Shown: one piece after another, positions 3,237-63,845 of the stretch | Numbering within the stretch: position 1 is the first letter of the stretch | Layout of the letters: every line of letters begins with the position of its first letter | NCBI GenBank assembly: GCA_051294375.1 | Contig: CM119265.1 | Coordinates: 16,560,005-16,624,004, forward strand | Origin: Paraspadella gotoi | Taxonomy: Eukaryota > Animalia > Chaetognatha | DNA length: 64,000 nucleotides | Direction: 5' to 3' | Notes under the pieces: model-generated | Told to the model about the DNA's origin: nothing | Database searches by the model: none | The model's input: the letters and a program-made list of their open reading frames with translations, nothing else | Position numbers and translations under genes: made by a program

Positions 3237-3573
3237 CGCCGGAAGAAAAACCTCTCACGCTCTCGCTCTCTCTCCTACTAAAAAGGAATGAAAATTTCGA
3301 AAAACTTTTGTTCTACTGTTTGGCCAACACCCGAGAAGAAAAGTATAAAGGGAGTGCATGATTTGTAACGCTAACTAAACTAGAAGTTTTCTAAAAAAAT
3401 ATTATAAAACAATTTTTAACTAAAAATAGTTTTCAAAATCAGGCACCACCCGTATTGTAACAGCAGTGTGACTAATGTAAAACGACTAAATAGAATCAAA
3501 AATTCCAATCGATAGAAATGGATCAAAACAATCTTTTTAAAAAAAATCACTTTTGAATCACAAAATAACAGAG

Positions 3574-6564
3574 TCAAATAGGAAAAGTGACTAGCGCCGG
3601 ATCGACCGTGGCCACAGTTCTCGTGCTTAGATCTTGGGCATCCATAGACTCTAAGTCTCCAATCTCGTCGGCGTATATGGCGTAAATAGCGTTTTGACTT
3701 CGCGTGCGTTCTGCCTCGCTGCGCATATCAATATACTTAGCCTCGTAGGAAGGGTGAATGCGACGCACGTGCTTCATACAGTTGCCCGCAAGGAACGACT
3801 CGTGCGGGCAGTAAGGACATCGGAATCGTTTTCGCCCCTTGACGCCTCCGTCGGTCGGATGCTCGCGCAGACGGTGTTCCTTGAGGGCTCCGGATGTGGC
3901 GAACTCGTGCGAACACTCGGGACAAACGTAAATGGGTTTGTCTTCGCTGTGGACGCGCTTGAAGTGGGCTTCCATGTGGCACTTGCGTTTGAAGAGCATA
4001 TTGCATTGTGGGCAGGGAAGAGATTTGACGAGGATGTGCTGAAACTTCTTGTGCTTGTTTACTTGCTCCCTGGTCGGTGCTTTATAGGCATGGCAAATGT
4101 CGCTAAAGAATAATTAAAATCGATTATTTAAAGAAGATAACGATTTATCCCGGGCATAAAATGTACCACTCGTAGAGAACGGCGCCTTCTAACAGCTTCT
4201 TGTGCTTCATGTACATGTGTACCGTGAATCTGCTTTTCCAAGGTGTCTTAAAGTCACAGTCGCCAAAATCGCAACGGAACACTCTCGAAGGATCAACGCC
4301 AATCCAGTGGGCATCCTTCTCGTGGATTTTGAGCAGAACGCTGTTTTTGAAACGTTTGCCACAAATTCCGCATAAGCGAGACTCCTTTTCCTGGAACGAC
4401 TTAGAACCGTGAACGTTTTTCATGTGATAAGATAACGAAGCGCTGTTTAACACTTTGCCGCATTGATCGCTGTCAAAATTTTTAAAAAATTTCAAAATTA
4501 GAAATAAGTAAAAAAAAAAATAAAGACAAAAATCGTTCGATGGAATTTCCCACTTACCAATTAACCATTGCCTTGACTCCCTCGTGGAGCTTTTTTCGAT
4601 GCACTTGCAGATCGGCCTTTCTCAAAAAAATGTGTCTGCATCCGAAAGCGTCGCAAGGATACGCGATGGTGGGACAGGCCATCTGGTGATGGTCGAGCAA
4701 ATGCCTGGCCGCGTGACGGTAAAAAACCATGTTAAACGACTGGGCCCTGGTTTTAAAATCTTTTTTGACCAACACGAAATCGCATCGTGGGCAAACGAAC
4801 TTCCCATATGGATCCAATGGGTTAGATACGTCCAGAAACAAGCACGGCTTCAAAACTGGATCCTGCGATAGCTTGCAAAAGGCGTTAGCTCGACCAAGAC
4901 AGTCAAGTTCCTCGTCTTCATCATCGTCGTCGTCGCAAAGGTCATCGTCAGTATCCTCGGTTCCCCCGTTTTGGATTTCTTGGTTTCCAGAGTTTCCGTT
5001 TTCCTTTCCCTCGCCGCTGCTCCGTAGCTCCGAATCCTCTACTCTGATCATACTGTGCATTCGGATGTGGTCGGTCATGGAGGCGGGAGAGACCGTGTCG
5101 CCGCAATCACCGCACGTGATTCGTCCGGAAACATCGAATTGAACCATCATTTCGTGATGTTGACTATTGACGTGATCGGCGACGTCTCTCTTTCTCACGC
5201 TTACGTAATTGCAGTGAATATCGAGACAGCGGTGGTACATTGTGGGGCAGAGGATCTGATGGGCTCGCAGGAGATGCTTGGCGCAGTGACGACGGAAAGT
5301 GCGAGCGGGTTTACCTCGGTACTGCGCGGCGAAATCGGACTTTGACAAGACGTACGCGCATCCTGGTTCAGCGCACACGAACTGGTCCCCGGAAACGCAG
5401 GGATCAAGGAAGGGATCGACTCCGCGGGTCAATTTGAATTCTCTAGATAATCTGTTGACGGCGGGACTTTTGGTGGGTGAATCTTTGGCATCACGAGTTT
5501 CTCCCCTGGGACGTTTACGAACTCCCTCGTCTATCTCTCGATAGCGCTTCTTTTTGCCCCGTACTTTAGGCCTCCCTCGCTTGCCAATGTTCACGGGCTT
5601 GGAAGCGCGATCGAGACCCATGAGTTCGAACTCGCAAGTTTTACGCATCAATGACATTCGATGCGGAGAATCAAAACGGAAGGCATCTTCGGTCCACTCG
5701 TCAAAAGCTTCAGTTTTGACGACGGGTTCCACGGAAACGATTAGTTCTTCACCGACGATCGTAACGGGATTAGCGGGGGTCGATTCCGAAAGCGAATCCT
5801 GACCCTCCACCAACGGGGCAAAATCAACCGCATGATTTGGAGTGGAGCTTATCGATTCCCGAAGTGACTCTGGCAGCCAACGAAAGGCGAAAAAGTCTAC
5901 GAGCTCGTTGACGCTGAGCACAGCGGACGTGGTAGCTACGGCGGTTGCCAAGTCGGTCGTAAGAGGCTTCTGGTCCAACTCTTCGTCTTCGCCATACATC
6001 CACGACAAAACGAATTGCAGAGAGTCTTCACAAACGTCAGCCGGAAGAAAAACATGATGGGTCCCGTTGACATCAGCCGACAAAGAAGTTAATGCTGAGA
6101 AACGAAAAAAATAACCGAGAGAACTAAAGACGCATTAATTTAATCTACAGAAGCTTGTTGAATGAAATAAAAAGCCTAGGCAACTTTAGAATAATTAATT
6201 ATTATAAATTCTAAAGAAAATTAGATTTTTAAATATTTTCTTTGCTTCCTACTAAAAAAAAAGCTTTAAAAGCTAGAATTTTTTTTAGCGACTTACTTTC
6301 AAAAAAGTAAGGGCTGCAGGCGGCCAGAACCACTTTGTGAGCAAAAAGTGGAGGAGGAGGCGGATCGCCCGGTTCGCCCACAGGTTGCCCTGCCGACCAA
6401 CCTCTTGATGAAAAGTGAAGGGCTACATCGCAGAAAAGGCCGTTGACGCGAAAGTTACGAAGCGCCTTTCCGATCGACGGGGGGTCAGGGACCCAAGGGG
6501 GGACGCGACCCTCGGGAAAAGAGTTCCTTGCCCCGGGGGAGTCAAGGGCAGGGAGTTCAGTCAT
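3574..6564 (-). CDS. BTB/POZ plus multiple C2H2 zinc-finger protein, 4 exons
   Basis: BTB motifs GLFCDVAL...FAHKVVLAACSPYF and FVLSWMYG, then many CxxC...HxxxH fingers. Exons ~6564-6297, 6084-4558, 4469-4167, 4102-3574. Junctions rebuild VNCDQC and YECDIC in frame. Confidence 0.9.
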
Positions 6565-6957
6565 CCCCGACTGGTCCGCCTCGCTACCATACTAAAACAA
6601 TTTAGAAACAACAGGGACAAAACAGGAATTACAAAATGACCAAAAGTATTAAAAAAAATTGCTAAGAAAATCATTGTAGAACAGAACGAAAACAATGGAA
6701 AAATGATATGCCTTTGTTACTTTAGTTATGATTTGAGCAACTTCTTTAAATGCCTGAATAAACTTTATTATATTACCTAATAGATAGATAAATTTCTGAG
6801 TCGGTATAACATCAAAATCTCAGCAAAAACTCGGCAAAGAAAAATAAAAGCAATAATTAAACACTAGTGTTAAAAATAACTAACTAGAAATTAAAAATCT
6901 AAATGGGACCTTAAAGGTACCCAGCAAATTTGACTAGCGAAAATAACATTTTAAAAA

Positions 6958-7677
6958 CTATTGGCGACGCCTTGAAAAACATAAAATATTGGTCCATAAA
7001 AAGGCAGCCAATCCAAGATAGGCAACGCGATAATGCGGAGGGACCAACTTAAAATTAACTATTTGCGCTAGAGGCCAAAAGAGACAGCCGGTGAGATAAA
7101 TCGAGACAAACTTCTTTCTCATAAGGGATTCCTCTCCCGTCAAGTCCGACGCTCCTTCGAAGGCGGGCACCGCAATCAAAAAGAGAGCGGTGACAGAGCT
7201 GGAGGCCACAGCCTGATCAAGCACCACCTTCTTGACGACTGTCAGCGGGGCTGCGCCAACGAAGAAAGAGTCCAGCACGCGGTACCAGGCGTGAAAGAAA
7301 GGAGCTGCGCCCGTGGCACCAAATAAGGCAACGTTAGTAATATCGTCAACAACGAAGGAAGCGCCATCTTCCCTTCCGCTCCGTCGTCGAAACAATTGTT
7401 GAGATATTTCCGCTGCTCCGTATAAAATTCCGATATAAGCCATATCCTTGGAAAGTGACTTTGATTCAAATATTTTTTTGAAACTCTTCAGTCTGTACGC
7501 TCTGTATGAAACAATGGTGACAGCGATACCGCTGGCGACCCCTGCGACGGTTTTAGTAATGAGGGATCGTCGATTGTCGACGATGAGGAGATTTTCTACT
7601 TTTTCTATAAGGAACGAGTCTTCAGTCTCCTTCTGCACCAAGTTGGGCAGCGCGACCAACGAAGACTGTTCCTCCAT
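6958..7677 (-). CDS. Mpv17/PMP22 family membrane protein, intronless
   Basis: Motifs WYRVLD, VVKKVVLDQ, FWPLAQIVNFKLVPPHYRV. Confidence 0.9.
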   Translation of the reverse strand: MEEQSSLVALPNLVQKETEDSFLIEKVENLLIVDNRRSLITKTVAGVASGIAVTIVSYRAYRLKSFKKIFESKSLSKDMAYIGILYGAAEISQQLFRRRSGREDGASFVVDDITNVALFGATGAAPFFHAWYRVLDSFFVGAAPLTVVKKVVLDQAVASSSVTALFLIAVPAFEGASDLTGEESLMRKKFVSIYLTGCLFWPLAQIVNFKLVPPHYRVAYLGLAAFLWTNILCFSRRRQ

Positions 7678-7778
7678 GCTGCCAATCCAAGCTTATGGTA
7701 CTGTCAACAATAATCAACATAAAACCACTTTCTTAAAATCGTCTAAATACAAACAAAACAAATGTATAAAATTATTCG

Positions 7779-8306
7779 CTATTCTCCAGTGTTTTCACTA
7801 CTGAAATCCGTCCTTTTAAACTTTTTTAACACGAGGTTGGGCAATTCCTTTACTTTTCCGTTCCATGACTTGAGTGCCTTAAACCCCGCCGCGTGCAACA
7901 CGTCCGGCAACTCGATCCCCGCGCCCTCGAATTCTTCCTTCTCCTGACCCAAAGTCATAGCAATGGCGTCTTGGCGCGCCGCGTTTTGACGTCCGTGACG
8001 CTTTGGAATCGATTGGATGAGGGCGATTTGCTCCATTTCCGAGTCGAAGCGGGAGAAGTAGGCGTCAATGACTCGAAGCATCTGCTGTTTGTTCAGTTTC
8101 TCGTCCTCGAGGAATAGTTCATTTAGTCTTTCTTTGAAAAACATCATCTTGGAAGCCTTGTTCTCCAGGCGAGCTAGTTTTATATCTTGAACTTTCTTCA
8201 CTTTATCGTGGTGCGCTTGGTAGTGAGATAAGTGTTTCGCCTTTCGACTGTTTGGATGAATATAGGCTTTGTCATTGCCCACCTTTTTTCCTTTTGTCTT
8301 GCCCAT
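7779..8306 (-). CDS. TMA16: Translation machinery-associated protein 16, intronless
   Basis: IHPNSRKA motif, YFSRFDSEMEQI, EKEEFEGAGIELPD and WNG motifs. ATG taken at 8306. Confidence 0.9.
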   Translation of the reverse strand: MGKTKGKKVGNDKAYIHPNSRKAKHLSHYQAHHDKVKKVQDIKLARLENKASKMMFFKERLNELFLEDEKLNKQQMLRVIDAYFSRFDSEMEQIALIQSIPKRHGRQNAARQDAIAMTLGQEKEEFEGAGIELPDVLHAAGFKALKSWNGKVKELPNLVLKKFKRTDFSSENTGE

Positions 8307-8334
8307 TTTACATATGTATGAAATTGGTATATAA

Positions 8335-8362
8335 CTGAACAAAAAAGAAAAAAAACCAAGAT
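8335..8362 (-). promoter_or_regulatory. Candidate trans-splice acceptor before TMA16
   Basis: tcttggttttttttcttttttgttcAG, 28 nt before the ATG. Confidence 0.6.
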
Positions 8363-8594
8363 AAATATGACGAGAATAATGACCTAATTTTAAGGTTTAT
8401 TTTAAAGATAAAACATGAGCTACTATAAATATCACAGAAAGACAAAGAAAAAAAGAATATTCGCCATACTGTCATGACCAAACCAGTTGAATTATTGCGA
8501 TCTAATCCCCATTTAAAGTTAAATCCAAAACCTGAGCAGTTTTATCAGATTCATTAATAACTCGCCTCGACGGTCCATAATCTAAAAAATGTCT

Positions 8595-9248
8595 TCACTG
8601 CGGTGGCTCAACCGGATACTGTCCTCCCCAAACGGCTACCATTCCGTTGTTGGGTCCGACAAAAAACTTGTCCGATTCTATATACTTCTTGATTGTAGGC
8701 AGCTCTTTGAATCTTTGATGGTAGGCATTGATGTTCGGCAAGGGATCCAAATAGCCCGGTTTAAAAAGCAACAGCTGATCCAACATCTCCCAGAATATAA
8801 AGTCGGCCCAAGTGAGAGACGCTCCAGCAAGAAACTCTTTACCCTCCAAGAACTTTTCCATCGGCGTAAGGAATTTGGTCAGGTTTTCTCGAAACTGGGA
8901 AAAGGGGTAAGGCTCACCGCCGCCGTAACAAATTTTGAGGAAGGCGCGACGAAGGTCGACAACTTGTTCAGCGGCCATATCGCAGAGATTCTGTTCCAGC
9001 TCGGTCTTCCCCATCAGCCCATACTTGCGAGCCAAGTGGCGCAAAATAGCGTTGCTCTGCGTCAGTTTCAGATCGCCGTCGACGTAGTAGGGCAAATTCG
9101 GAAAATCTAAACCGAGGTTGAACTTTTCTCCAGACCACTCGTCCCATTTATCGTAAAACTTCTCATCCATATTTTCTTCGACATAGCCCATAAGGAGGCG
9201 GATTGGCTGGGCCAAGCCTCGTATTTTCCAATAACCCAAAAGCGGCAT
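8595..9248 (-). CDS. Mu-class glutathione S-transferase, intronless
   Basis: LGYWKIRGLAQPIRLL, KFNLGLDFPNLPYYVDGD, LTQSNAILRHLARK. Confidence 0.95.
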   Translation of the reverse strand: MPLLGYWKIRGLAQPIRLLMGYVEENMDEKFYDKWDEWSGEKFNLGLDFPNLPYYVDGDLKLTQSNAILRHLARKYGLMGKTELEQNLCDMAAEQVVDLRRAFLKICYGGGEPYPFSQFRENLTKFLTPMEKFLEGKEFLAGASLTWADFIFWEMLDQLLLFKPGYLDPLPNINAYHQRFKELPTIKKYIESDKFFVGPNNGMVAVWGGQYPVEPPQ

Positions 9249-9402
9249 CGCTGCGATTCTAAATTCTTAAATTGATTATGGAAGGCGATAAAACATGTAA
9301 AATATAATCATATATAGCCATAAAGGCTTATAGCCAACAAGACAATAGTTAGGTAAAACACGGGAATAAAAAAAAATTAAAAGGATGAAAAAGTGGTAAT
9401 AA

Positions 9403-10739
9403 CTAGTTTTTCCATCTCCCACCAAATAGTGTAGTTTTTCGTCTGTCATAGGCGACTTTTTTCGTTGCGCTTGGGGAGGAACACTGCAAAGCAGATTCTA
9501 ATTGCGAGCAAAGCAAATCGACCTCCTCTTCGCTGAGGACGGGAGACATTTCGGGCAAAGAGTCTTTCGAGTAAGAAGATCGTGTCCGGCGACTTTTTGG
9601 GGCTCCAAGCACCAAGCCATCGGGAAATAACTAACCGATAAAAAAAAAAAAAAAAACGGGGGTTGATAAATGTGTTAAACTTAAAGGTATGTAATACAAA
9701 TATCGCAACTTCTGAGGCGATATTTATAGTAATTCAAGTGCAAGAAAGGATAATAAAAGATATGAGGATAGGGAAATAAATAAAGTTCGGAAACAAGGAA
9801 GAATGAGGTCTGAGATTAAAAAAAAATCTTAAACAATCTGTAATTNNNNNNNNNNAGAGAGAGTATAAATTGTAATTATGGGAAAAAATCACCTTTTGAG
9901 CGACGTTAATCCCTCCGCTGAGTAAAAAGACATTTTCGTAACCTCGCTCCACAAGAATGGTGGCGGCCCTGGGAGCTAAAGACTCGTCTTCGTCGTACAC
10001 GACGACGATCTTCCCGTCGAGGTTTCGGAATGATCGAAGTTCCGGCGTTTCAAAGCGCGTGGCGCGGGAAAGACGCGAGCGAGGAAAGTTTTTGGCCGTC
10101 CGGATGTGACAGACTTGATATTCGTCCGCCTCGCGAACGTCGAGCAGAAGATAAGGAAGGGCGAGGTGATTTTCGGTATTTTCCTTGTCGGCGTCGTCCG
10201 TGTCGCTCAATATCTGGGAGACGCTCATTTCTCCGCTCCCTAACGCGAAGCTCACGAAGCTCGACTGCGAGGTCGTAGAATTCATAGAGACGGCCGACCT
10301 AGGTCGAGCCGAGGAGGCAGACCTGGGCCGCGTATCCGATATCGCGGCCCGATTTAACGGTGAAGACGCTGCCTGAGCCGATCCGTCGAGCTCATCAACC
10401 GCCGGGGGTTCTGACGAGGTCACCGACTTCGAGTTGACTTCCCTGTCCACCTGAGATACTTGAATCATGATCTCGACCATGGTTGAAATTCGTATTCGCT
10501 TGAACAATTCTCCTTTTTTGTATTTGTAATTCGATTTCAATTCGTTAAGTTTGTCCTTATATCTGAAAGGGATCAAATTTAAAAAATTCAAAAACATAAC
10601 CATGGGAGGATGCAACTGTTAGGATTTACCTTGTCATACTCGAACCAGTATCGACAGTTGCCTTCACGTGGTCATACTTTGGATTCCGAGGAACCTTACG
10701 GTTGAAACCAGCTTGAAAGGAAGGGGCTCGGAAAGCCAT
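9403..10739 (-). CDS. CEP41: Centrosomal protein of 41 kDa (rhodanese-like domain), 3 exons
   Basis: Exon 1 gives KVPRNPKYDHVKATVDTGSSMT. Exon 2 gives YKYKKGELFKRI, PYLLLDVR, IVVVYDEDE, ERGYENVFLLSGG. Exons ~10739-10630, 10563-9893, 9630-9403. Confidence 0.93.
9846..9855. other. Assembly gap (10 N) inside a CEP41 intron
   Basis: Run of n in the sequence. Confidence 1.
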
Positions 10740-10926
10740 GACTTCACTTTATAATCTGATTAGAAAAGTCACGGATGATTAATGATGGATGTACAAATGA
10801 GGAATGATTAATAAATAAGAATGCATTTAATTATCGAAGCTCATGAACTCATGATAGAAAGTATTTAGTGTCCGATTATCTAGCAAACAGAAATTGACTA
10901 ATGGGAAGGAGCTAATCCTAAGCGTT

Positions 10927-11502
10927 TTATTCGTCCTCTTCAACATTAAATCGTCCATAGATTTCTTTTACAGTAACTTGTTCCATTTCTGCGATTCGCG
11001 CAAAAAAGTTTCTACTGGTTTCCATGATCATCTCGTAATCATCCCGCTCGTTTCGACGAGTCTGGCGCTTTCCAACTTTTCGCTCGGGAGACCGGGTGGC
11101 AAGCTTGGCATCGATTTGAGCCCGAAGGCGACGAAGGCTCGCTAATTCTTCACCGATACGTTCGCCGTCGACGTGGTGTAACTTTTCAGCCCAAGAATCG
11201 GTCGACGCGGGAATAGAGGACGGACTCTCGCTAGTCATTCGGAGAAGCGACTTCAGTTCAGCGATCTTGTCCGCGTTTTGCGCTTCCAGGTCGGCGATGA
11301 CGGAGAGGTGGTCCGAGACGGGTGGAGCCAAAGAAACGTCGATACTTCGTTTCCGCACGGGGCGGCCGACCCCGAGAATTGCGGATTCAGGACGGAAAGC
11401 TTCGTGGTTTTCAACTGTCCCATTATCCTTGGGATTCTTTTCGGGAGTTAGTATTAATTCTTCTCGAGCTTTGATGACGGACGGGCAGTGCGATCGCCTC
11501 AT
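10927..11502 (-). CDS. SWI5: SWI5/Sae3-like DNA-repair protein with an N-terminal extension, intronless
   Basis: C-terminus DDYEMIMETSRNFFARIAEMEQVTVKEIYGRFNVEEDE matches the recalled Swi5 pattern Y-x2-I-x8-(G/A)(K/R)(L/I)A-x4-VTxKE(L/I)Y-x2-F-x-(L/V), preceded by a coiled coil. Confidence 0.7.
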   Translation of the reverse strand: MRRSHCPSVIKAREELILTPEKNPKDNGTVENHEAFRPESAILGVGRPVRKRSIDVSLAPPVSDHLSVIADLEAQNADKIAELKSLLRMTSESPSSIPASTDSWAEKLHHVDGERIGEELASLRRLRAQIDAKLATRSPERKVGKRQTRRNERDDYEMIMETSRNFFARIAEMEQVTVKEIYGRFNVEEDE

Positions 11503-11995
11503 AGTTAAATATATTTTTTTATCTGGGAAATAAAAGGCAGTAAAAATCTACGCGATGAATAGGAATGCTTCATTATTCTAATGTAAATTTGTTGAAAGCT
11601 TTTGAAATTAATCACGGAACGATTATCCGCAGATCGTTAAACATAATCAAAAATATCTTATTTGACATATCAAAATACAAACGAAACTACGACAAAAATC
11701 AAAACAAAATGTGGGAAGAGTTAGTTATTATAAAGTATTATAAAATATTAGGCTAAATAATGGAGATTGTAGAAGTACTTAAAACTTTTTTATTTAAAAA
11801 CAAAATATTCAAAAAATGCTACTCAATAAAAAAAGAAAATCAAATAAAAAATCTCTTTGGAATAATACTGACTACAATTCTATAACACTAAGCGCGTCAT
11901 ACAAAGGAAGCAGGAAAAACAACACAGCCATGTTACAAATTCAAAATAAAAAAAAATAAAAAAAACCAAAAAAAAACAAAACAATGGTCATCGAG

Positions 11996-14900
11996 TTACA
12001 AATTTGAGCCGGCGACGGGTTCGTTACAATGCCGCAGGTCCTTCATGAGTCCGGCGATAGCGTCGAGAATTTTCGACTCGTACTTAGGGAGTTGAGTGTC
12101 GATGTTGGCGTCGCCTACTTGACCATCCTCATAGACGAAGAAAAACCGCGTGCAAACGTGGTCGCTGTTGGGGCACACCCAGATATTTCCATTGCGTTTA
12201 AGTTCAGGCGAAGTAATGACTTCGCAAAGGGCGATGCAGCTAAGGTTGTTGCTGAGCAAAAAGTGTTGTTTTCTGGTGACGGTAGAAGAGCCGGCGGATG
12301 TGGTGCCGCCGGCGCACTTGTCAGAGGCGACGTGCACCGAAGCGGCGGCAGAGCAAGCGGCGGGGATTTTAGAGAGAATCGTCTTGAGGCCAGAGGACGC
12401 CGACGGAGCCTTCGGGGGCTTGGCGACAGAGGAGAGGATTGGCGAAGGGGTGGACGTCGTCCCCTTGGCCAAATTAATGGGCACCGAAGAGCGAACAGAC
12501 GTATTGAATAAAGTTGTAACAGAGACCGAGAATTCATGAGGATTTGCGCTTGACTGAATAAAATTAATTTGTTAGGGGTTTTCTATACGAATCAAAAACT
12601 CATTAAAAAATCTTATAAGTATAGTGATCACGCCAGACGTAACTATCAAAGAAAATTAATAAAAAAAATAAAAAAATAAAAAAAAACACAAATGATTGAT
12701 GCGATAACAAATTATAATTGTAATAGTAATTAATTGATGTAATAGTAATTGATTGTTTGATTTAATAGTAATTAATTGATTGATGTAAAGGTAATTAATT
12801 ATTGATGCGATAAATTATTAATACGATAATAACCAAATATTGATGTGATGATAACCAAATGATGGATGTGATAATAATCATTAATTGATGAGATGATAAT
12901 CATTCATTGATGCAATAATAGTTATTTATTGACGCGATGAGTCGTTCATCGTAAATAAAATGAACAAATACGAGTATGAGAGAGAGAGAGAGAAAGAGAG
13001 AGAAAGAAAAAAAAATTGAGAAGCTGGATAACCGCTGCAGAGCTTAACTCGTTTTTAAACGAATCAGAAAAAGCAGCGATGGAAAAAAAAAGAGCGACAT
13101 AATTAAAAGAGAAAGAGCGACATATATTTAAAAGAGACAGAACTGGACATCTGAACTCGTTTATATATATATAAAAATTGTTTTGTAAAAAAAAAACAAA
13201 TGAATGGAGGAATATGAAACATGTGAATCTAAAAGATCTTGCTGATTAGAAGCTATATCTAAATTTTTAGCTTCCTATGGTTATACACTTAAACTATTTT
13301 CAATATTAAAACAGCGGAACGACGACGACAACCACTATGGTCAAAAGAAGCAGACAAATTAACATCACGCCCAAGTCGGGCATTCGCCCGTCAGGCGAGA
13401 TAAAAACTGGACAGTGGACAGCCTAAATTTTCATACCTTAAAAGAAACGGCGGTGATCCCTTTGTTGGGAATGGGTGGTGCAGAACTGGAGCTCCGTTTC
13501 GGCGCACCCCTTCCCGTCGGTAACGCGGTTGTTTTCACAGTTTTTGAGAGGGACGCTCCGTGGGGAGGGGGAGCTGTGTTACTAGAGGCGGGCTTAGACT
13601 GAGTCTTTGTCAAAGCTTTGACCGCGTGATGGCCATGCCCCATTCCAGAATATCCGAAGCTCACGCTGGCCACCGGACTCAGATAAATTCCAGAACCGTA
13701 GGCGGCTCCGTGGAGCTGATGTTTGGTTCCCGAGGCGTTGTAAAGCCCGTTGCGAAGGATACTGTGCCAATTTTCAAAGTTAGACCCGTGAAAAGCAAAG
13801 GTGCTGCCATGCTCCCTTTTCAATCCCCGAAAAGCTGTCTCTTTGGCCGGCGGACTGCAGAGCAGCAAAAACTGATGCTTCGTGTGCATAAAGTCAAGCT
13901 GTTTATCCGGCGGTAGCTTTACAATGTGTGAGCGATTAGAGGAAATAATCCAATTGAGTAACGGGTAACCAAGCTTGTCAGCGGCATCCATCTCGCGCTT
14001 AAGAGCGCCGCCCACTAAGGACGTCATGCGCTTCATCAACGGGAACATCTCCATGGCGGATAGAGCTCTAGCGAAGTCAGGTCTTTTTGGGTTAAAGGCC
14101 AACTCCGAGGGTGAATCAGGGTCGACCACAATAGGAAATGGGTCAAAGATGAGAGTCTTGCGTGTGGACCGACAGGCCGCCTTGGCCATAGCGATCAGAA
14201 GGTCGACGACCTCAGCGGCCGTCGAGATGCTGTCCGCAGCCTCACCCATTACATTGAGATTAGAGAAAGCAAAGACACAAAGCTCTCTCGCGCATACAGC
14301 CGGTTTCATCATGCACGACCCATTTTGAAAAAGATGAGAACGATCGCAAACAACGCCTAGAATTAAAAGAATTTAAAAAAAAAAATGGCACGAAAAAATT
14401 TCTCGTACGATACTTACAGAATTCGTTGAGGGTGGGAATCCTTTGCCGTGCATACTGATACGTTTGAGCTAAAAATCCTCGGATGAGCTTTGGGATTACT
14501 TTCGATTGTGTACCGTTGAGCGTGTTGCAAGGCAGCAATTGTAACTCTCCATTGGAAGCCAGCTCCGCCAAGGCTTTGTGTTGCGATGGTGTCGGTTTCA
14601 TAGCGCTCCTCTTCCGCCCGGGCGACCCTCCAGCTTTTTGAAAAACGGCCGGGAACTTTTTAATCACCGCCGAGGGTTTAAAGGAGAAGGCAAAATTGTC
14701 ACGGAGGCTCGAGGAAGGGGAAGCGGCGGATGAAGAAGTAGGAGGATGTTCCTTAACGAGTGACGCCGAAGGATCGAGGGATACAACGGGAGGGGGAGAA
14801 CTCGAAGAAAGCTTGTACGAGGATAAAGCCGATGACGTAGTGGAGAGAAGAACCGATTTAGCTTCTGTCGCTGCCGAATTTTCTTCGGTCAATTCCGGCT

Positions 14901-18363: not shown

Positions 18364-18574
18364 CACGCTCTTGTTTCTCACGGCTGAAAAATTTGTTCCA
18401 TTGCGGGCGGAATGCGTACGTCCTCCGGTAATTTGGATTCCTAACCTATGCCCTATATACCTATAACCTATTCACTAATTGGAATAACAGAACGGAACTT
18501 ATTAATAATTATGTATGGAATGAAAGAAAATAAATAATTTTCTAGTTTACACGGGATGTGTTAAGATCAATAAA

Positions 18575-19520
<946 letters not shown>

Positions 19521-19556
19521 CTTAAAGTTAAACATATATTATGAGGTGCACACGAA

Positions 19557-25545
<5,989 letters not shown>

Positions 25546-29830: not shown

Positions 29831-29847
29831 CACCAAAGCCTGTCCAA

Positions 29848-41381: not shown

Positions 41382-41491
41382 ATTGTTTTTCGACTAGAAC
41401 AAGTTTAGCAACAAAATTAATAGGTCACAACTTACAAAATATGGCAACAACGTCAGAAACAAAAATATCCCAATTTAGAGGTTAAAAACTG

Positions 41492-50400: not shown

Positions 50401-50945
50401 TCGAGTTTCAGTTTGCCCAATAATATAAATAATTTATTAATAATATATTAGTAATTATTAATTAATAATAATTTAAAATTATATTATTATATATTACCAA
50501 TATTATTTTATATAATATATATTATTTAATATATATATAATAATAATAATAATAATATCATTATTATTAAATATTTTAATTTTTTGTTTTTTCATTTTTT
50601 TACATTTTTTGTTTGGGTTAGGGATTGGGGGAAGTTAGGGTTAGGGGTGTTTAAGGTTAGGGGTTGTTTTTAAAATAAAATTTTGAATTAAAAGTTTTTC
50701 TGCTCTTCCCAGTTTTCTTTTTTGTATAACAAGATTTCAATACATCGCTCATATAAAGCAAAAAACAAAAAAACCGACCGCAAAATCCCTGTCGGCGCAT
50801 GTACAATTTAACCCTTTTTTTCATTCACAACATAAGATGATCATATACTTTCTAATAATTTACCTTCTCCATTTAGATCGTTGATGCAGCCAATCGTGGA
50901 CGCTAACTTGTCGATGTCAGCTTGAAGGCTTTCCCTTTCCTCCAT
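41492..50945 (-). CDS. SNAPC4: snRNA-activating protein complex subunit 4 (SNAP190), about 18 exons
   Basis: N-terminus MEERESLQADIDKL, NQSYQ...NREKQ, PYFKD...PPPNADT, then tandem Myb repeats (WMKIA...CQRRW, WTAEED, WHQVAYFVDGRTAAQCAQRW, WTQEED, WSWEED). Confidence 0.88.
45770..45925 (+). repeat. Copy of repeat family B with a 3' hairpin
   Basis: atatctaaattttaagcttc plus hairpin atcgtcgcaa-gcgccagcga-ttgcgacga, matching 49375-49550. Confidence 0.7.
47380..49258 (+). mobile_element. 5'-truncated, frameshifted non-LTR retrotransposon (LINE) reverse transcriptase, antisense in SNAPC4 intron 47033-49702
   Basis: RT motifs across frames: LQFGYK, FMDCSKGFDKVNH, GVRQGGILSPYLWAVYVDDL, YADDIALL, KYLG. 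3' AATAAA and (TA)n tail at ~49239-49258. Confidence 0.9.
49360..49560 (+). repeat. Most complete copy of repeat family B (HINE/MITE-like)
   Basis: Contains the blocks shared with 13235, 29765, 44445 and 45770, plus terminal hairpin atcgtctcaa...ttgcgacgat and an A-run. Confidence 0.7.
50612..50665 (+). repeat. Short degenerate TTAGGG-like array in SNAPC4 intron 1
   Basis: gggttagggattgggggaagttagggttaggggtgtttaaggttagggg. Confidence 0.7.
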
Positions 50946-51947
50946 TGTAGGACTATATATAAATGGAAAGAATGATTAGTAGATTTATGATTTCTTTACA
51001 TTCTGATTAGAAGTAAAAAAAATTTACGAACGATGGATTAGTTACAGATCATTATTATTACTATTATTATTATATTCGTTTCAAAATTAACTTTTTACCT
51101 GGACAATAACTCTTTGCCAATATTCTCTCCTTAGTTTCGTCTGGAAGATGCATCAAAAGTTTTTTTTTCCGTGACTTCAATTAAAATAACCGAAGTTGTT
51201 TTAGACAAAATATATATATGTATCTAACTGAGAAAGAAAATAATACAAATTTAATAATTCGGCAATGGGTTGAATCGAAAATAACTGAGAAAAAAAAAAA
51301 AAAAACAGGAGTAGAGAACAAAATTTGTTACATGAAACGGCACCAAAGAATAACTGGTATGAAAAGTTTTTTTGTGAGAAAAAAGTCATTAACGAGAAGC
51401 GGATCCAAAGTAGAGTTGGCAATTATTGAAGCAGATTAAAACGGCGATTTATCTCGACGACTTATGAAGTGGGAAGAAGGAGGGGAATGGGGGTTAGGGA
51501 GAGGGGATGTTTGTGGAGGGTCGAAAAGCGTGGCCATTTGGACGTGTTTTGAACATTTTGTTTTTTAAAACGAAGACGACCCATGTTTTGAACGCATTCA
51601 AACTTGAAGATACAATTTTTACTTCCAAGGCGAAGAAGAAATCTTTAGTCTACCTCCTATGATATATTTAGGGTTCTATCCATTGGTGGGGCTAGCTCGA
51701 AGTTTACATTTTATCCCCCAATTTTGTTAAATATAAATACTTCGCATTTTGAAAAAAGTAACTCGAAACATTATGTATAATTGATTACGCTTTAAAATTA
51801 TCGTTATAATATCACAAAAAGTAAATAAGGATATAAAAATGACGGCTTTAATCGGTTCCAAAGAGTGTAAACTTATTTCATGAATGGCCAACTACTTTTA
51901 AAACGCTTTTTTGTCATCTATCCAACACTACATATACTTACCATTAC

Positions 51948-54900: not shown

Positions 54901-57900
54901 ATTTGACTTGTGGTCATGGTCAGATCACCATGATGTATCTTAAAACAGTTCTTATCATTGCAAGTTCCACTTAGATCGAAGGGACAGAAAATGTTATCAG
55001 CCGAATTACATTTATAAGAAAAAGATACTGACGAAATTTTCAAACCATTTTTTAATCTAAATTTTGGCAAAAGACGATAAGACTTTAAAGAGGATAATGG
55101 ACTCTTATATAGTTTGTGAGTATAATTTGTGCATCTCTTGGTGTTTCCAAGGGCGTTTCTTTGTGAGGCATCATCATCAACTTCGGCTTCTTCATTTGAC
55201 CGAATTTTTTGAGAAGTGTCACTTCCTAAAATGAATGGAGGGACATCGCTATATTGCTTTTCTGATAGGGGAAATATCATATCATATTTAATTGAATTTA
55301 AAATGTTATTCTCTTTAATTTTTTCCAAAGATTCGTAACCAAAATCACCTCTCAACATAACTAAATCTTTTAGTACCGAAGGATTTTTTTTTTCTTTTTC
55401 AGACTGAAGTTTTCGGATTTGAATCATTTTGGTTTCTGGTGGTAACTCAATAGAGATCGGGTTTTCTCTTGGCCGAATAATTTTCTGGTTTTCAACAAGA
55501 AAACCCTCATTAAAATGTGGTTTTATTCCGGAAGAACTCAATTCAGACAGACTCCTTTTGCTCCTTTGAATAAAGTTTTCTCGCTTTTGGTCATTAGCTC
55601 CTTCTGCCTTATTCATAAATGAATATTGTTCAAGAGATCTTCGAATCGAAAGTTCTTTTTGATGTTGAGCTATTCTTACTGCCATCTCACGTTCCAGTTC
55701 CTGGAGCCTATTCCTCTCTTTCTGAACTTCATTCTTATCCATTCGTTGAATTTCGTGAACCGATTTTAATTTTTTAACGGGAGAACCTTGTTCCCCTTCA
55801 GCTTTTCGTTTGTGATTATTTTCAGGCTCAACGTCAACATCAAGGACTTTCAACTTTTTAATAATGGAATCCTCTAAAGACTTCTGCTTCGTCAAACGTT
55901 CTTGATCTGATACCAAGCGTTCTTTTAACGTCATAATTTCTTCGTTAGTTTTTATGGAGTACTTTTCCATTTGTTTTAATTGATCTTTAATTTTTTTTAT
56001 TTTCTCTTCATTCTTAGTCAGTTCCTTGATTTTACGATTCATACTAGATTTCACTTGAAAAATATCTTTAGTTAATTGCTTTATGTTTTGGTTATTGGAA
56101 TAATACATGTTCCTAACAGTTTTTACTTTTTCTTTCTGTGCATTTGAAATCAACGTTTTAGTTGTTTCGGTTGGATTAACTTGAGCATCAGCAGAAAACT
56201 TGGGCGAAAGAGTGGTTTCAGATTGAGAGGCGTTTTCTCCTTCATTAATTGCACAAGGTTCAACCAGTTTGTTGACGACAGCTGTTCGCCTGGACAACTC
56301 CAGCTTAAGTTTCAAATATTCCTTTACTTTTTCAGCGTTAAGCAAGTCCACAACACTCTTTTCTTTGTCAATCAAAGATTTGTTGGCCTTTTGATCAGCG
56401 TCTGCAGCCTGACGGGCCTCTTTTAAGAAAGAATCGATATTGGTAGAAATTGTATTATCACTTTTCTTTGCATCTAAAGGTACATTACTTTTCCCTTCAA
56501 CTTCTTCGTTTTCATCGGAAGAATCATTTCCGATGGAGATTATCACAGGAGAAATCTGAGGAAAACGAGGCTTTTTAACCAAACGCGAGTTTATTTGTGT
56601 TGGTTTAACTGCCGAGACGTCGGAAATCTTGCTTTGAGACGAGGACTTGACGGGTGCCACGACGGAAAGCAAAGAGTTCGTTTGAGATTTCCCGCCTTCC
56701 AATGAAACCTCTTTAAGCACCGTTTCACTAGAAGTGTCATTTTTGTTTTTTGATAAATTACCGGTTTTTTTTGCCTTCTTTACGACTCTTTTCTTTTTAA
56801 CCACATTAGTTTGTCGAGAGGCAGCCGGTTTGTTGTCTTCTTTGTTAGGCTTATCGTCCAACCGCGTCGTCGAATCTAAGTTTACAAGAAGCGATTGTCC
56901 CTCTACATCCTGTTCTGGAACAGGAACAGGCTGTGGGGAGTCATCAGCCGAGTCTCTTTTCCTCTCCGCCATGGCCGCTAAGAGCACTGCGCGTATGGCG
57001 TCGGGATCTTCGTCATCGTCTTCCCCTTTAGAAGTAGATCGTCTCCTCGAGGGTTGGCCGAGGCTTGTTGTCGAGTTAGTTTGGTTTTTGTCAACGAGTC
57101 GGCCAATAGCTTCCCATGCTCTTTCGCTCTCAATTCGGTTTTCCTCATTGAGCCGAATTTCCGATCGACTCCTCGACTTTTCCTCCGTCTTTTCAAGGAG
57201 CTCCCAAGGATCTTCTTCGCTGATGTCGCTCATTTCTGACTCGTCTTCCTTTAGATTTCGTAGATCCTCCTCTAATTCGACGAGGTGTGGGGGCGAGGGG
57301 GCTATGCGTGGGCCCGGTGGCGATGTCGCTATCGGCGCGGCGAAAGACTTTGAGCGTGAGGAGGTCGGCATCTTCGGTGGCGAAGGCGCTGGAAGAGGTA
57401 TCTCCGCGACGCCGGGTAAAGAAGACGAGAACGACGGCGGGGGCGGAGCTTGGCGCGGCGGCAGATGAGAAAACGTGGCGACGGCCACTAAGGGCGGAGG
57501 GGTAACCACTCTCGGACGTGGCAAGGAAATATCCATGAGATTGGGCGGAGTTTCCCGAGGCGGAGGCGGAGGTGGCGAGAGCGGTTTGGATGGCAAAGGG
57601 GGGCGATCAAAAAAAGGTGGAAAAAAGGTGTTAGTTCTCAGCGGTAGCAGCATTTCCGGCATTTGCGGCATCTGAGGTGCCTCTCCCATTTTCATCTCTC
57701 CGCGACGACGCGAGCGGACTTCTCGTTCGTCGTCCGATGACCCGATTTCCATAGAGATGCGTTCATAGTTGTCCCGGTTCGAAAGGGATTCACGACGCAG
57801 AGTCGAGAGCCCGTGGCGAATGTGAGCAGGAAAGTGATCCCTCCGTCCTCCCTCAAAAAACTTTAAGTTTCCCCTCCTTGTTTTTCTCCAGTCGATATCC

Positions 57901-58907
57901 CCGTGATCCTTAAACCTGACTTCCTCAATAATGACGTCATCATCATCATCGTCGTCGTCCTTTACTTCTATGACTTCGTCTTCGACGTCGTTCTCCTTGA
58001 CTTCACCCTCTTCCTCTTCGGCGTTCTCAACATTCAGATCATCGGTCAATAACGCAGGATTTCGTCTCGCGGCCGACTGCAGAGCCATCATTCGAAGCTG
58101 TAGCTCCTCGACGGTTTCGTCTTCTTCCTCTTCGTCGGCTCCCGGAATGATGGCAGGGCCCGCAAAAATCGTGGATGGCGTCCGACCATCGTCGCCGTTT
58201 TCGGCGTCGGGGGAGGCGGGAGCGTCATCAAATACCACGCTGTCCTTGGCAACGACTTCGATCGAGGGATGACGTTCCGAACTGTCCGGCAAAGTTTCGG
58301 TTTCCGGTATCGAACGCTCGGGCGTAGGTGGTCCGGACGACAAGTAGTTGTCAATTTCGATGTCGTTTTGATCCTGCTGATACTTGTCGATTAGCTCAAT
58401 CCGGTCCTGAATTTTCTTGTATTCTTTTAACATGCTGTCGAAGTTTTCATTGTCTACGGGTAAGCGGGAAGATATTTTCTCGCTATCCTTCGACGAAAAC
58501 TGAGAGGGTCGTGAGTAACGAGACGAGGAAAACTCGAAACCTTTATATTTTCGAGCTTCGACTCCACGGGATCTCCAATTCTGGTATCGTTGGCCGTTCG
58601 ACGGCGGGGATCTCCGTCCTGCGTGAGAAGGCGGAGAGCGGTGTCGACGACGGTATTCTTCGCCTATAGGCAAGGCCGTTCGCGGAGCCATGTCCTTAGA
58701 TCGATCGCGACGCTTTGAGGCATAGCGCTCGGCAGCCTGCATCGCTGTCAATGGAGGAGACCGACCGGAAGACCTGCCTTTGGGAATAGAGTCCACCCAG
58801 ACCCGAGCTGGAGGAGACGGTCGTCGACCAGGCGGTCGACCCCGGCTCGAATCCAGAAACTCCACGTCGTCCATCTCTTCGATTTCGCCGTCCTCCAAGT
58901 CACCCAT
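51948..58907 (-). CDS. ZFC3H1: Zinc finger C3H1 domain-containing protein (PAXT exosome adaptor), 3 exons
   Basis: LEDGEI motif, LQLRMMALQSA, proline-rich region, coiled coils, YKSPL...FCPFDLSGTCNDKNC zf-C3H1, HAT/TPR-like ALNVLARGLE. Exons ~58907-52363, 52287-52093, 51978-51948 (last exon less certain). Confidence 0.92.
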
Positions 58908-59312
58908 GGCAAACGGTATTACAGTTTCGAGTATTTTTATAATACTGTTTTAAAATAAAATTAATAATAAAAACAAAGTGATCTAGCGATAAAAACTACT
59001 ATTACCAGCGTTTATAACCTAAACAATAAAATTAGACAATTATGGTGGTGAAAAAGTCAACTTCAATGTACTTTTTTTCCTATTTATTTTAACAACACCC
59101 GACCATAACTGAAATAAAGTTTTAGAAAATGTAGCCAAATATTGTTTACTTAGTTTTATTTTTTCTGCATTTAAAATGTTTTAACGGCTACCACGGCGAA
59201 ATATAAATCCTCGACCAACCTGTAAAAAATTGTCAATATTCAACAAGCAACAATAAAAGTTAACACGGCTCTGATAACGGTTGCAACACAACTTCTTTTA
59301 AAAGTCAGGAGT

Positions 59313-60823
59313 TCAAGCCAACAAAATCTCTCCATTCTTTATGGTGATGTTGGGATTAAATTCTATTTTCTTTGTAATTTTTTTTTTAATCGTATCCTCG
59401 TTGATCGGGACATCTTTTTTAACGGAGTTAAACTCTTCTAGCACCCTTGAGGTGACCTGCGCAAAGGAAGCCTTCTTCGACGGGCAGGCGTCAAGAAATG
59501 AGTGAATGACACGGCCGAAGTCAAACCGTGGTCCTTTTTTCTTTTTCTTTTTTATTTCGGAGACTTGGACGGAGCCGAAGCTGACCCTTTTTTCGCTTTT
59601 TTCTTTAACAGAGGTCTCGTAGCCGTTCACCACCTTCGATTCCACCTCGATCTTGAGAGTTTTTCCCGGATCCTGGCTAGAGCCTTCTTCAAACCTTCTA
59701 TTCTTCCTACGCAGTTTTTTCTGGAGCTTTCTTTCCTCTTTCGCCTTAGGTTTCTCACCGGCAGCGGCGGCTATATCATCAGCGTCAGACGCTTCTCTCT
59801 CTCTTTTCGCTTTCTTTTTCGGTGGAGAGTTAAGTTCCTCGTCTTGGCCGTCGCCTCCCTTTCGTTTCTTCAACGGAATGACATCCATTTTCGGGTTGCT
59901 AAATGTATTTTCTTTTTGCTTTCTTGACTTTTTAATTGTGTTTTCTTTAATGGCTACTTCCTTTCCATTTGGGGGTTTATTCTCACCATTCATTAATTTT
60001 GGACCACGTTTCTTTTTCTTTTTAGCGATGGTTAATTCTATGGAATCGACCACAACATTCGTCGATTGAATTTCCAAATCTTTTTTCTTTTTTTTAATTT
60101 TTTTAATTTTTACGTTCGTTTCCACTTCATCGGACGCTTCTTCTACCATTTCTTTTTTCTTATTTTTCTCCTTTTTTTTCCCGGCCGAACCATGAGAATT
60201 GAGGTTTTCCTCATTTAAGTCGCTCGTAACTCCAGTCGCTGGAATCTCATTGCTATCATCGACTTGTCCGTTTCTCTTTCCAATGGTATTTGAGTCATAT
60301 GACGGAGGTTCAGTTCCCTTGGCATTTTCCAAAAAATTCCAGACAGCTTCGCAAACGCCGTTGTCGTACACCTTCAGGCTGCTTTTCAAAAAGTTGATCA
60401 GCTTGGTCTTTTTCCTGGGAATGTTGGGGTAATCCGGAAGCTTCTCTAACGTGTTAGTCACTCGTTTGTCAGAGTTAGGCTTTAGATTGCAATCTTGAAG
60501 GGCTTGATGAATCTTTGACAACCAGGCTTCCTGCAAACGGATAAAGTTGATTATTTACGTAAATGACAAAGTGATCAGTCAAACCAAATGACCTGCTTTG
60601 CGTCTCCTTTGCTCTGCTGAACCCGTAAGGATGATGAATTTTGTGCCTCGTACTTTTGCGATTCAGAGATGCATCGATTATGTGAGGCGAAATCCGAACC
60701 GAGAAATTCTACGCTGCAATCGATACAAGAGAAAACATCGCTTCTGCGGCATTGTGTCTTATGCTTCTCCACCTGATTTTTCTTGCAGTCTGTTCCGCAT
60801 CCGGCACACTGGAAATACACCAT
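59313..60823 (-). CDS. LYAR: Cell growth-regulating nucleolar protein, 2 exons
   Basis: MVYFQCAGCG...KKNQVEKH...FSCIDC...HNRCISESQKY, YPNIPRKKTKLINFLK, K-rich tail. Confidence 0.95.
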
Positions 60824-60834
60824 CTTTATAATCG

Positions 60835-60860
60835 CTAGAGGAATGAAGAAAGAAAAGCGA
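60835..60860 (-). promoter_or_regulatory. Candidate trans-splice acceptor before LYAR (representative of 20 such sites)
   Basis: Minus strand cgcttttctttcttcattcctctAG, 11 nt before the ATG. Confidence 0.6.
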
Positions 60861-61154
60861 GTTACAAAATCAGGAATAAATTTTAAAAAGATTTTTGACT
60901 CGTCTTTATTTAAGACCGATATATCTGTACAGTTCGTTTTTTATTTTTCGGATTAAGACAAGTTCGAAACTAGGTAAAATCCACCTGTACCTATATACTA
61001 AAAAGGTTTTTTTAGCGAACAGCATATATAATTTGTCAGATTGAAAATACAATCCGAATTGAATACCTATCCAAGGCGCTCAGCGTTAATCACAGAACTA
61101 GTTAAATTAATATCACAATGGAATCATAAATTAAGAATTGAAAATTAAAAATAA

Positions 61155-63651
61155 TTATTCATCGAGTGATAAGTTCGAGAGGTTAAGGATTCCCGTATCG
61201 ACGGGGGACTCGGGGCATTCCGCTACTAAGCAGTGACGACACTGATAATTGATGTCCTTTATGTTATCATTTGGCGAACTCCCAGGCGGTACGAGATCGA
61301 CGGCTTTGTCGACATCGAGTGAAGGTTCTAACATTTTTTTTTGTTTCATGGATGACTCCGGTAAATCTTTTAATCCTTCAACCATAATTTTCCCCTCCAT
61401 AGCTTCGGGCGGTGGGACTACGGATTGCGAACTTTCTTCGACGAATACGAAACCGTTTTCCACTAAGCGCTGAATCCCTGCGGCTTCCTCGACGACGGCA
61501 GTGTCCTCGACGGCTTCCTCCTCCGATATGGAGCCCAACGTCCCAAGTCTAGAGCTCGATGGGTGCTCCACCGTTTGATGCTGCTGCGGCGCCGGAAGAG
61601 GATTGAAAAAAATTTTTTTCAAGTCAGGCGCCGAGTGGGACCTCGACGTTCTGGAGGGGTTTTTTCCTCCCACAGTCTCGATGGCCAGCGGGGTCGGATC
61701 CTTGAAAGGCGACGAGTAGAGAGGTTTGGAAGAACCGAGTTTGGGATCGCCGGGACGACGCGACTCGGGTTCTAAGCGCAGTAACAGGCGTCCGCGCAGA
61801 TCAGCTAGTTCCTGCTTAAGAACGAGGTTTTCATCGCCGAGTCTCTGGATAAATTGGCCAGCCGGATTCTGATCGAAGAAGAGAAAGCAAAGAATAAAGG
61901 CGAAAATAAAGAGCGAACAAGCAATAGGTCACAACCTGAGCGATTGCAGGGCGACCTCCCTCTCTGCAGGCGTCAGTCAACATTTGGGAGGTTGTAGGGG
62001 TACGGATATCGGCTGGGCTGATTGAGACGAGACCAAAGCCCAGTCCTAAACGATATCCGCTTGCCACGATGATAAAGATGAAGACTACAAAAACGGCGAC
62101 TGGCCATAGATGAATCGGGATGTCTCTGAACACGCCTAAAAACCATAGATGTATTTTTAAAAAAAAAAGACTGAAGTAAAGATTTTTAGATATTAAAATA
62201 ATATTAAAATATATTACCAGATATGAACTTTCCCAAGGCGTTTCCAAGAAATTCCAACGGCTCAAACATCATTTGATTAATGGTGAAAACGAGGACTCGA
62301 ATCGGAGTAACCTCCGTAATAACATCGACCTGATAGGCATGGTGGAAGCGGCGACAGGCGTCTTGCTCTGGGTCGCCGAACTGAAAGGGTCTCGCCAAAG
62401 ATTTCCAGACGTCAGTGAATACGCTCAAAAAAAAGGAAGAGGAGTCTTCTTCGTTAAAGGAGGAATGGCATTGGGGGGGCAACTTTTGTGAGCGATCGAC
62501 AGCCTGATTTACTTGAGCCTGAGGAAAAATGGGAGCAAAGAAAGATTTTAATTTTAGAAGAAAAGTGACTGGTCAACTAAGAACTTACCTTTTGATAAAG
62601 GGCCACGCCGTTCCAGGGAAGACTGACGATAAATAGAATGACGTACAATAAAACAAGAAGCTTCAAAGCGTCAGAAAAGCAAAACGAAGAGATGCACAGC
62701 CTTCGAAGGAACCAAATGCCTGAAAGCGAATTGTTGGTAATTAGGACCAGCTTTATTTTAGTTCGTTTGGAAATTTAGATTAATGTAGTTGCAAAAAAAT
62801 AATAATATTCAAAATTACTCGTATTCTTCAAAAAATTAGAAATATAAAGTTATAGATATAACTTCTAATAGATTTTAAGTTAATTAATAATTAACAATCA
62901 CTCGATTAGATTTACCCCAAATCCCAGCGAATATTGGAACTAGCCAAAATAGATTTTGACGATTTTCAAAGAGTGCGGCGTAAGAAGGACGAGAAGAATG
63001 AGTCTCAACATCGTTTTCATCCGTCTCCCAGCGCACCTTAACCATCGCTGCGGAAAAATGCTGCAGCGCCCACAAGTTGTCCCTGCAAGCTCGGTCGTCT
63101 TTCGTTTTCGTCGTTCGCGAAACCACGCGACGCAGAAGGTCGAGATGGACGACCGGGAGACGAATGTCGGCGCGGAGGACGATCGCGTCGGTGTCCTCCG
63201 AATCTAGCCGCCCATCCGACGGAACGACGTCAAGAATCTGTCGCATGAGTTTGTAAAATGTCGAGACGCAGACGAGAGACAGTTGGGATTCGGTTTTGCA
63301 AGTTGAATTGATCGAGACGTTCGCGGAAAATGCGTCGAGGGAGGGAATGGATCCTGGAGCGTCCGGCGCTTCGATCGTGGGTTCTTTCATCGGGGAATGG
63401 TTCACGGACTGCTCTTTGTTCAGACTCTCCTTCGTCGCGTTGGGACAAACGCAAGGCGGGCAGGGGGATTCAGGTTTGGAAGGTTTCATGGTTTTTGTGC
63501 TGCTGTCGTAGTTGAACATGTCTCGATAGTCGACGTAATTCTCAGGCAAATCATCATCAAGGTAATCGACGTTCGATCGTCGATCGCCGAGGCAAACAAT
63601 TAAGTTTAAAAAAATTAGACATATTGAGAGTTTCAAGCCGATCCGAGCCAT
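61155..63651 (-). CDS. CLCC1: Chloride channel CLIC-like protein 1 (MCLC family), about 5 exons
   Basis: Signal peptide, VDYRDMFNYDSSTKTM motif, DACRRFHHAYQVDVITEVTP, EPLEFLGNALGKF, TM segments. Confidence 0.85.
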
Positions 63652-63845
63652 GACGCTCAATTTCTCTCTAAATATTTAGAGGTAATAATTATATGAAAAC
63701 TTTGATATTAAACCTCATATTTAAAATTAAACATTTAGCAGCTTGAATAGCCACGAAAAAAAAAATAAATAGTAAAATCAGAAATAACGGTTGTGGCATA
63801 GATGTTAATGACACATGGTTCTAATTTGCAGGAAAAAACAAAAAT

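Follow-up and report, generated by a model that had tools for sequence, protein, structure and literature searches.

How does a chaetognath express at least 21 neighbouring genes that all point in the same direction? The question is raised by a 64,000-nucleotide stretch of the Paraspadella gotoi genome (assembly GCA_051294375.1, contig CM119265.1, positions 16,560,005 to 16,624,004; hereafter the window, with positions counted from its first letter). Open reading frames (ORFs) and Pfam matches place the genes on the minus strand across the whole window (1..64000), and the run is open at both window ends. From the upstream end it comprises a gene ending at 63846, CLCC1, LYAR, ZFC3H1, SNAPC4, DNAJC17, Miro, MTX2, SETX, BRAT1, DRAP1, NVL, PCGF3, PARP, SWI5, CEP41, GST, TMA16, Mpv17, BTB-ZF and KDM1B. 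A previous reading of the bare sequence, referred to here as the sequence-only reading, had noticed a site resembling a 3' splice acceptor (YAG) just upstream of each visible start codon and had proposed that these are sites of spliced-leader addition.

The evidence presented here makes it probable that the majority of the 20 YAGs serve as spliced-leader trans-splice acceptors, and that the same-strand genes are transcribed as one or several polycistronic precursors which are cut into single mRNAs by 3'-end cleavage and leader addition. In this model, precursors spanning several genes would be cis-spliced, the 3' end behind each gene would be cleaved and polyadenylated, and the leader would be joined to the following gene at the AG that precedes it. 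A modified cap carried by the leader is a feature of spliced-leader trans-splicing. The mechanism is already known for the phylum; the addition made here is one directly supported site and, possibly, an unusually long run.

A leader end at the NVL acceptor

The RNA evidence consists of the assembled contigs of one run (X1) over positions 1-20000 and 24900-44800, which hold 16 of the 20 sites (SNAPC4, ZFC3H1, LYAR and CLCC1 lie outside), and loose ends and junctions are those among the matches listed for X1. The NVL acceptor is a TAG at 25584..25586 on the minus strand, 38 nt before the ATG at 25545. An X1 contig departs from the genome right after 25583, the first base behind the predicted AG at 25584, and continues with nine foreign bases that read TTGTTTAAA on the gene strand. 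A search of the window's minus strand, which includes 38 kb upstream of NVL, found no copy of this nonamer, whose chance probability at the base composition of the spacers is 4.5e-5. Of the 26 leader variants tabulated for Spadella and Flaccisagitta, 25 have exactly these nine bases at the 3' end (Table 3 of PMC2481426, alignment dashes removed). The variants in that table end in A, not G, and so does the foreign sequence in the NVL contig. The nine bases are also the longest end common to leader forms 2, 3 and 4 of the same table, and the contig may stop where these forms branch, if several leaders are used.

The join lies directly after the TAG (25586-25584), no strong donor is found 55-400 nt upstream of it, and the contig that covers the upstream genes BRAT1 and DRAP1 ends at 25687, about 100 nt from the site. 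The sequence-only reading had expected transcript 5' ends to be clipped exactly at the AGs with one shared leader; at NVL, a contig is clipped exactly at the AG and carries a leader end. NVL is the only gene on which a leader is seen among the loose ends listed. The pieces listed do not span its 503-nt spacer, and NVL may either be a downstream gene or head a unit of its own. We infer that leaders are added at most of the other 19 sites as well. The unplaced letters at the contig ends of PARP, BRAT1 and SETX (about 97, 128 and 38) do not separate a leader from read-through and were not used. Two further runs (X2 and X3) aligned only in repeats or as short, diverged pieces, and contributed no evidence on junctions. 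A pattern search of the window for a spliced-leader RNA gene returned no matches, and Rfam found neither such a gene nor any other match anywhere in the window.

Acceptor-like sites before the start codons

Each of the 20 positions named by the sequence-only reading marks the G of a minus-strand YAG (13 TAG and 7 CAG), and an ATG follows at exactly the distance given. Its statement that all visible start codons are so preceded holds for the 20 minus-strand genes and omits candidate plus-strand ORFs in an NVL intron (20.6-23.1 kb). All 20 genes have a YAG at 3-45 nt upstream of the ATG. When the spacers were subjected to 2000 dinucleotide shuffles, the number of such genes averaged 12.0, peaked at 18 and never reached 20; this comparison is free of thresholds.

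The sites resemble the acceptors of the 29 cis introns proven by RNA, as had been claimed for their pyrimidine tracts. Pyrimidine content is 0.69 at the sites and 0.64 at the cis acceptors, and the median AG-free zone is 35 and 39 nt, respectively. The 147 other YAGs in the spacers differ, with a pyrimidine content of 0.54 and an AG-free zone of 17 nt, a comparison that is partly circular because features of this kind had guided the choice of sites. Near 18 of the 20 ATGs (GST and PARP fail) a simple rule for acceptors is passed, against a mean of 5.9 and a maximum of 13 in 3000 shuffles, although the p-value is optimistic since the thresholds were chosen after the feature comparison, and 19 of the 29 cis acceptors themselves pass. 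The same rule is passed by 4 of 20 in the region 46-88 nt upstream and by 23 of 115 non-coding ATGs. A position weight matrix trained on the 29 introns is noisy and gives a weaker signal: it separates the sites from other AGs (p 0.001), and 11 of 2000 shuffles reach the real mean.

Spliced RNA across the spacers

Measured from stop codon to AG, the spacers are 76-1536 nt long (median 258) and 9 of 20 are shorter than 250 nt. The four tightest precede DRAP1 (76 nt), Mpv17 (77 nt), PCGF3 (89 nt) and DNAJC17 (97 nt). The spacers are AT-rich (GC 0.19-0.34). AATAAA occurs in only 9 of 20, so that poly(A) sites are not placeable from the sequence.

Spliced contigs bridge 9 of 16 spacers from the stop codon of one gene to the start codon of the next. 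A single spliced contig of 17,755 nt covers SWI5, CEP41, GST, TMA16, Mpv17, BTB-ZF and KDM1B and extends about 6.8 kb beyond the window, and other contigs join BRAT1 to DRAP1, Miro to MTX2 and SNAPC4 to DNAJC17. X1 contains 0.91 of the words of positions 3000-12000. The expected share is 0.907 if introns are absent and spacers are present (the ends of one intron being approximated) and about 0.68 if the spacers are absent too; the spacer cover is therefore spliced RNA and not DNA. That X1 represents RNA follows from its skipping of canonical introns, since none of the runs listed as containing this sequence is recorded as RNA. The 29 proven cis introns (28 listed joints and one gap between pieces) comprise 27 GT-AG and 2 GC-AG introns, the latter two adjoining each other in SNAPC4 (43710-43787 and 43957-44049).

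Evidence against leader addition and competing explanations

Several observations weigh against the proposal that these sites receive a leader on precursors shared by several genes. The weight matrix puts only 2 of the 20 sites at the top of their own spacer, where 2.6 are expected by chance, and scores the sites below the cis acceptors (p 0.04). The CTAA branch-like motif, noted in the sequence-only reading, is present at 5 of 20 sites but is not enriched relative to the other YAGs (22 of 147, p 0.2), and as evidence it was rejected. The leader end is seen at 1 of 16 sites among the loose ends listed, and there as nine bases in one contig of one run.

Two sites call for revision. The Miro-MTX2 spacer contains a 72-nt GT-AG intron (37759..37830, minus strand; RNA joint 37758-37831, canonical ends) that ends 42 nt upstream of the site previously assigned to MTX2 (37717..37719). 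The RNA uses the AG at 37759, and the assigned MTX2 site is read through in the spliced contig and is doubtful. The acceptor at 37759 has the top matrix score of its spacer, the intron having been in the training set. The Miro site (40250..40252) is read through and doubtful as well. The Miro contig starts at an AAG (40382..40384, minus strand), 137 nt before the ATG, where 28 foreign bases are joined and an AATAAA starts 23 nt upstream. These bases are purine-rich and occur neither in the window (up to 3 mismatches) nor in the chaetognath leader table of PMC2481426; they may be a distant exon, an unlisted leader class, an allele or a chimera. The AGs at 37759 and 40382 are probably better acceptor candidates for MTX2 and Miro than those at 37717 and 40250.

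These two genes lend some weight to the view that the AGs terminate ordinary cis introns in 5' untranslated regions (UTRs) or arise by chance where UTRs are rich in T, and that the loose end at NVL comes from a distant exon or from faulty assembly. The Miro-MTX2 intron is a genuine cis intron within a spacer, the contig of Miro has a foreign end that does not resemble the leader, strong-looking donors lie 55-400 nt upstream of 7 of the 20 sites, and shuffling alone gives a YAG near 12 of 20 ATGs. However, no contig skips from a donor to the named AG at any of the 11 sites that contigs cover, the shuffles never produced 20 of 20, and the foreign end at NVL is that of the published leaders (PMC2481426), joined at the predicted site. 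Such an explanation is quite improbable. Possible cis donors had been suspected upstream of two genes in particular. At DNAJC17 (41394..41396, 97 nt past the SNAPC4 stop) the suspicion finds no support, as a contig reads through the site without a gap and bridges the spacer, while at SNAPC4 (50953..50955) it stands, with candidate donors in the sequence at 51100 and 51027 and a stronger AG at 51003.

Colinear read-through of the AGs, which the sequence-only reading had regarded as contrary to leader addition, is formally present at 11 of 16 sites. It is nevertheless expected of precursor RNA in assembled contigs, and it does not refute leader addition, since a contig reveals that a sequence is present but leaves out rare variants. 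Assembly also trims short side branches. If the read-through products were instead the stable ones, the genes would be translated from an uncut mature polycistronic mRNA and the AGs would rarely be used, and the 17.8-kb spliced contig does span six whole spacers unbroken. This is hardly credible given the leader-type join at NVL, the contigs that end near the 3' ends of DRAP1 and DNAJC17, and the reports that chaetognath operons are resolved by trans-splicing, so far as the available text of these papers goes (PMC2481426, PMC12460157). Contig depth is a single figure for each contig and says nothing about the level of spacer RNA.

In 11 of 20 spacers the distance between stop and AG is above 250 nt, and in two it amounts to 994 and 1536 nt, which leaves room for separate promoters. 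The leader acceptors could be real while the majority of genes are each driven by a promoter of their own and begin with a short outron. Contigs would then run on from gene to gene because upstream 3' UTRs overlap downstream outrons, and true operons would be few. A contig across genes is not the same as one molecule, and the DRAP1-NVL and DNAJC17-Miro spacers are unbridged in the pieces listed. The published figures for Paraspadella gotoi are in keeping with such an arrangement, since 10,197 of 21,072 genes (nearly half) are trans-spliced and only 18% are in operons, which are enriched in housekeeping genes and for which the available text reports no operon-specific leader (PMC12460157). On the other hand, spacers of 76-97 nt between stop and AG have no room for a 3' UTR and a promoter, 9 of 16 spacers are bridged, and the 21 genes share a strand and are separated by AT-rich DNA. 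We therefore regard separate promoters for most genes as distinctly unlikely and favor polycistronic precursors resolved by leader addition. The identification of the sites as places of leader addition is supported directly at NVL and statistically at most of the others, while the assignments at MTX2 and Miro are in doubt.

Positions of the remaining candidate acceptors

The remaining candidate acceptors, all on the minus strand, differ in their RNA cover and sequence context. Seven are read through in contigs that bridge their spacers: those of KDM1B (3278..3280, with the ATG at 3236), BTB-ZF (6592..6594, with the ATG at 6564 and a low matrix score), Mpv17 (7701..7703, 77 nt past the TMA16 stop), TMA16 (8335..8337, with a strong T tract), GST (9259..9261, with a weak tract that fails the simple rule), CEP41 (10756..10758) and DRAP1 (26865..26867, 76 nt past the BRAT1 stop). 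The SWI5 candidate (11523..11525) has the highest matrix score of any AG in its spacer and is read through, the contig breaking in a T-rich repeat near 11932-11987. The PARP candidate (18384..18386) has a weak tract and fails the simple rule, the PCGF3 candidate (19467..19469) lies 89 nt past the NVL stop, the BRAT1 candidate (29600..29602) follows a strong T tract in a 1536-nt spacer with repeats, and that of SETX (35561..35563) is 4 nt before the ATG. Farther upstream are the candidates of ZFC3H1 (58945..58947), proposed from sequence features, LYAR (60835..60837), with a strong tract, and CLCC1 (63668..63670), 177 nt past the stop of the upstream gene.

In 3 of 20 genes another ATG comes after the AG and ahead of the claimed start, namely in BTB-ZF (6591, out of frame and 1 nt past the AG), TMA16 (8314) and BRAT1 (29594). 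Short or out-of-frame upstream ORFs would consequently stay in the leader-spliced mRNAs of these genes.

Genes and other features of the window

The gene names are backed by Pfam in 17 of 20 genes at E<=0.001, weakly so for CLCC1 and ZFC3H1. SWI5 has a Pfam match at E 0.009 only and BRAT1 just a weak HEAT repeat. By Pfam domain content alone, PCGF3 is not separable from other PCGFs, nor NVL from other AAA ATPases. Some of the genes contain very long single exons, of about 4.1 kb in SETX (31137-35230) and about 6.6 kb in ZFC3H1 (52293-58907), beside which the introns are mostly 60-100 nt. The SETX-like helicase opens with a RanBP2-type zinc finger (35292-35556; Pfam E 2e-5). A 10-base N gap (9846-9855) lies in the last CEP41 intron.

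The coding region of Miro (38337-40244) is intron-free. The closest relatives of its product have 74, 72, 59 and 62% identity, and the best named one, from Lingula, has 55%. A quick tree of 36 selected rows, with no named chaetognath or rotifer among them, places it in a nine-row clade apart from all 20 named taxa. The long branch of Miro and the leader match at NVL together point to a chaetognath. A metagenome scan with the Miro alignment found no full-length close relative among 80 loci (the best long matches were 45-55%), and the leader end does not occur in the first 60 bases of any of these 80 Miro loci.

The SETX-BRAT1 spacer (1536 nt) is repeat-rich at 29778-30453. This part contains a perfect 49-nt inverted copy of 49420-49468 and 35-nt inverted arms at 29881-29915 and 30395-30429. 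Its summed contig depth is about 9,700, and a low-depth contig skips 29848-30452. This part is probably a small mobile element, to which the spacer owes some of its length. A broken LINE-type reverse transcriptase (RVT_1, E 5e-14) lies at 47413-48885 on the plus strand, within an intron of SNAPC4 and opposite to that gene.

Four plus-strand ORF pieces (20580-23091) are nested in a 2.6-kb NVL intron, a hydrophobic one of 109 amino acids, a lysine-rich one of 265, a coiled-coil-like one of 148 and one of 184. They are possibly an antisense nested gene. They have no Pfam match at E<=0.001 and no credible Atlas match; an Atlas match of low recognition, to a plant senescence regulator, was rejected. 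The first ATG of these ORFs, near 20682, has no acceptor-like tract upstream.

The length of the transcription unit and comparison with known systems

The closest known system is that of Spadella cephaloptera, in which leader trans-splicing has been described and a two-gene RPS14-PCNA operon was proven on a bacterial artificial chromosome (PMC2481426, PMC2566580). The Paraspadella locus resembles it, as far as the available text describes it, in a leader 3' end that is identical over 9 bases and is spliced to a housekeeping gene behind an AG in its 5' UTR, and in same-strand genes with very short spacers. Unlike the two-gene operon of Spadella, the run described here has at least 21 genes, with direct leader evidence at one site and the remaining 27 or so leader bases outside the contig. 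The longest operon reported for Paraspadella gotoi has nine genes under a rule of less than 250 bp between genes (PMC12460157). The locus shares with these published operons a compact genome and housekeeping genes, and the run is more than twice as long as the longest of them, but it includes spacers at which the 250-bp rule may break it. Genes of this run may already be in the operon list of that paper.

In the tunicates Ciona and Oikopleura, operons are mostly bicistronic and contain up to 11 genes (PMC4122922, PMC7986045). In the available accounts, tunicates share with this locus one leader pool for monocistronic and polycistronic genes and short or absent intercistronic DNA; their leader sequence differs. 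As in nematode operons of the SL2 type (PMC2776167, PMC7986045), unrelated housekeeping genes are combined and the distance from the upstream 3' end to the next acceptor is about 100 nt, here between DRAP1 and NVL. Nematodes use a dedicated class of downstream leaders, whereas chaetognaths are reported, in the text available, to lack one, and the 9 bases found here are common to forms 2-4. A narrow literature search, covering the sources in part, found no leader-resolved operons longer than nine genes in Paraspadella or 11 in tunicates.

Trypanosomes transcribe all of their genes polycistronically and are nearly intron-free. In the latter respect the locus is unlike them, with 29 cis introns proven in the two regions compared with RNA. 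The likeness lies in long same-strand runs with an acceptor at every gene, as described in the available text (PMC7986045).

We infer both the sharing of promoters and the limits of the transcription units. A unit of at least 10 genes, from NVL or PCGF3 to beyond KDM1B, has roughly even chances of being real. It is unlikely that the entire run, with at least 21 genes and more than 64 kb, forms a single polycistronic unit which leader splicing resolves. Such a unit would be about twice as long as the longest animal operons found (nine genes in Paraspadella and up to 11 in tunicates), and chaetognath housekeeping genes would be arranged in directional clusters like those of trypanosomes, broken up by the 250-bp cut-off. 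The long fused contigs and gene models of this region should be taken, as a warning, for operon precursors and not for fusion genes. The locus lends itself to asking what length an animal operon can attain. If a single promoter serves at least 20 unrelated housekeeping genes, operon counts based on distance would give too low an estimate of polycistronic transcription in chaetognaths, and an animal would express its core genes in nearly the way that trypanosomes do.

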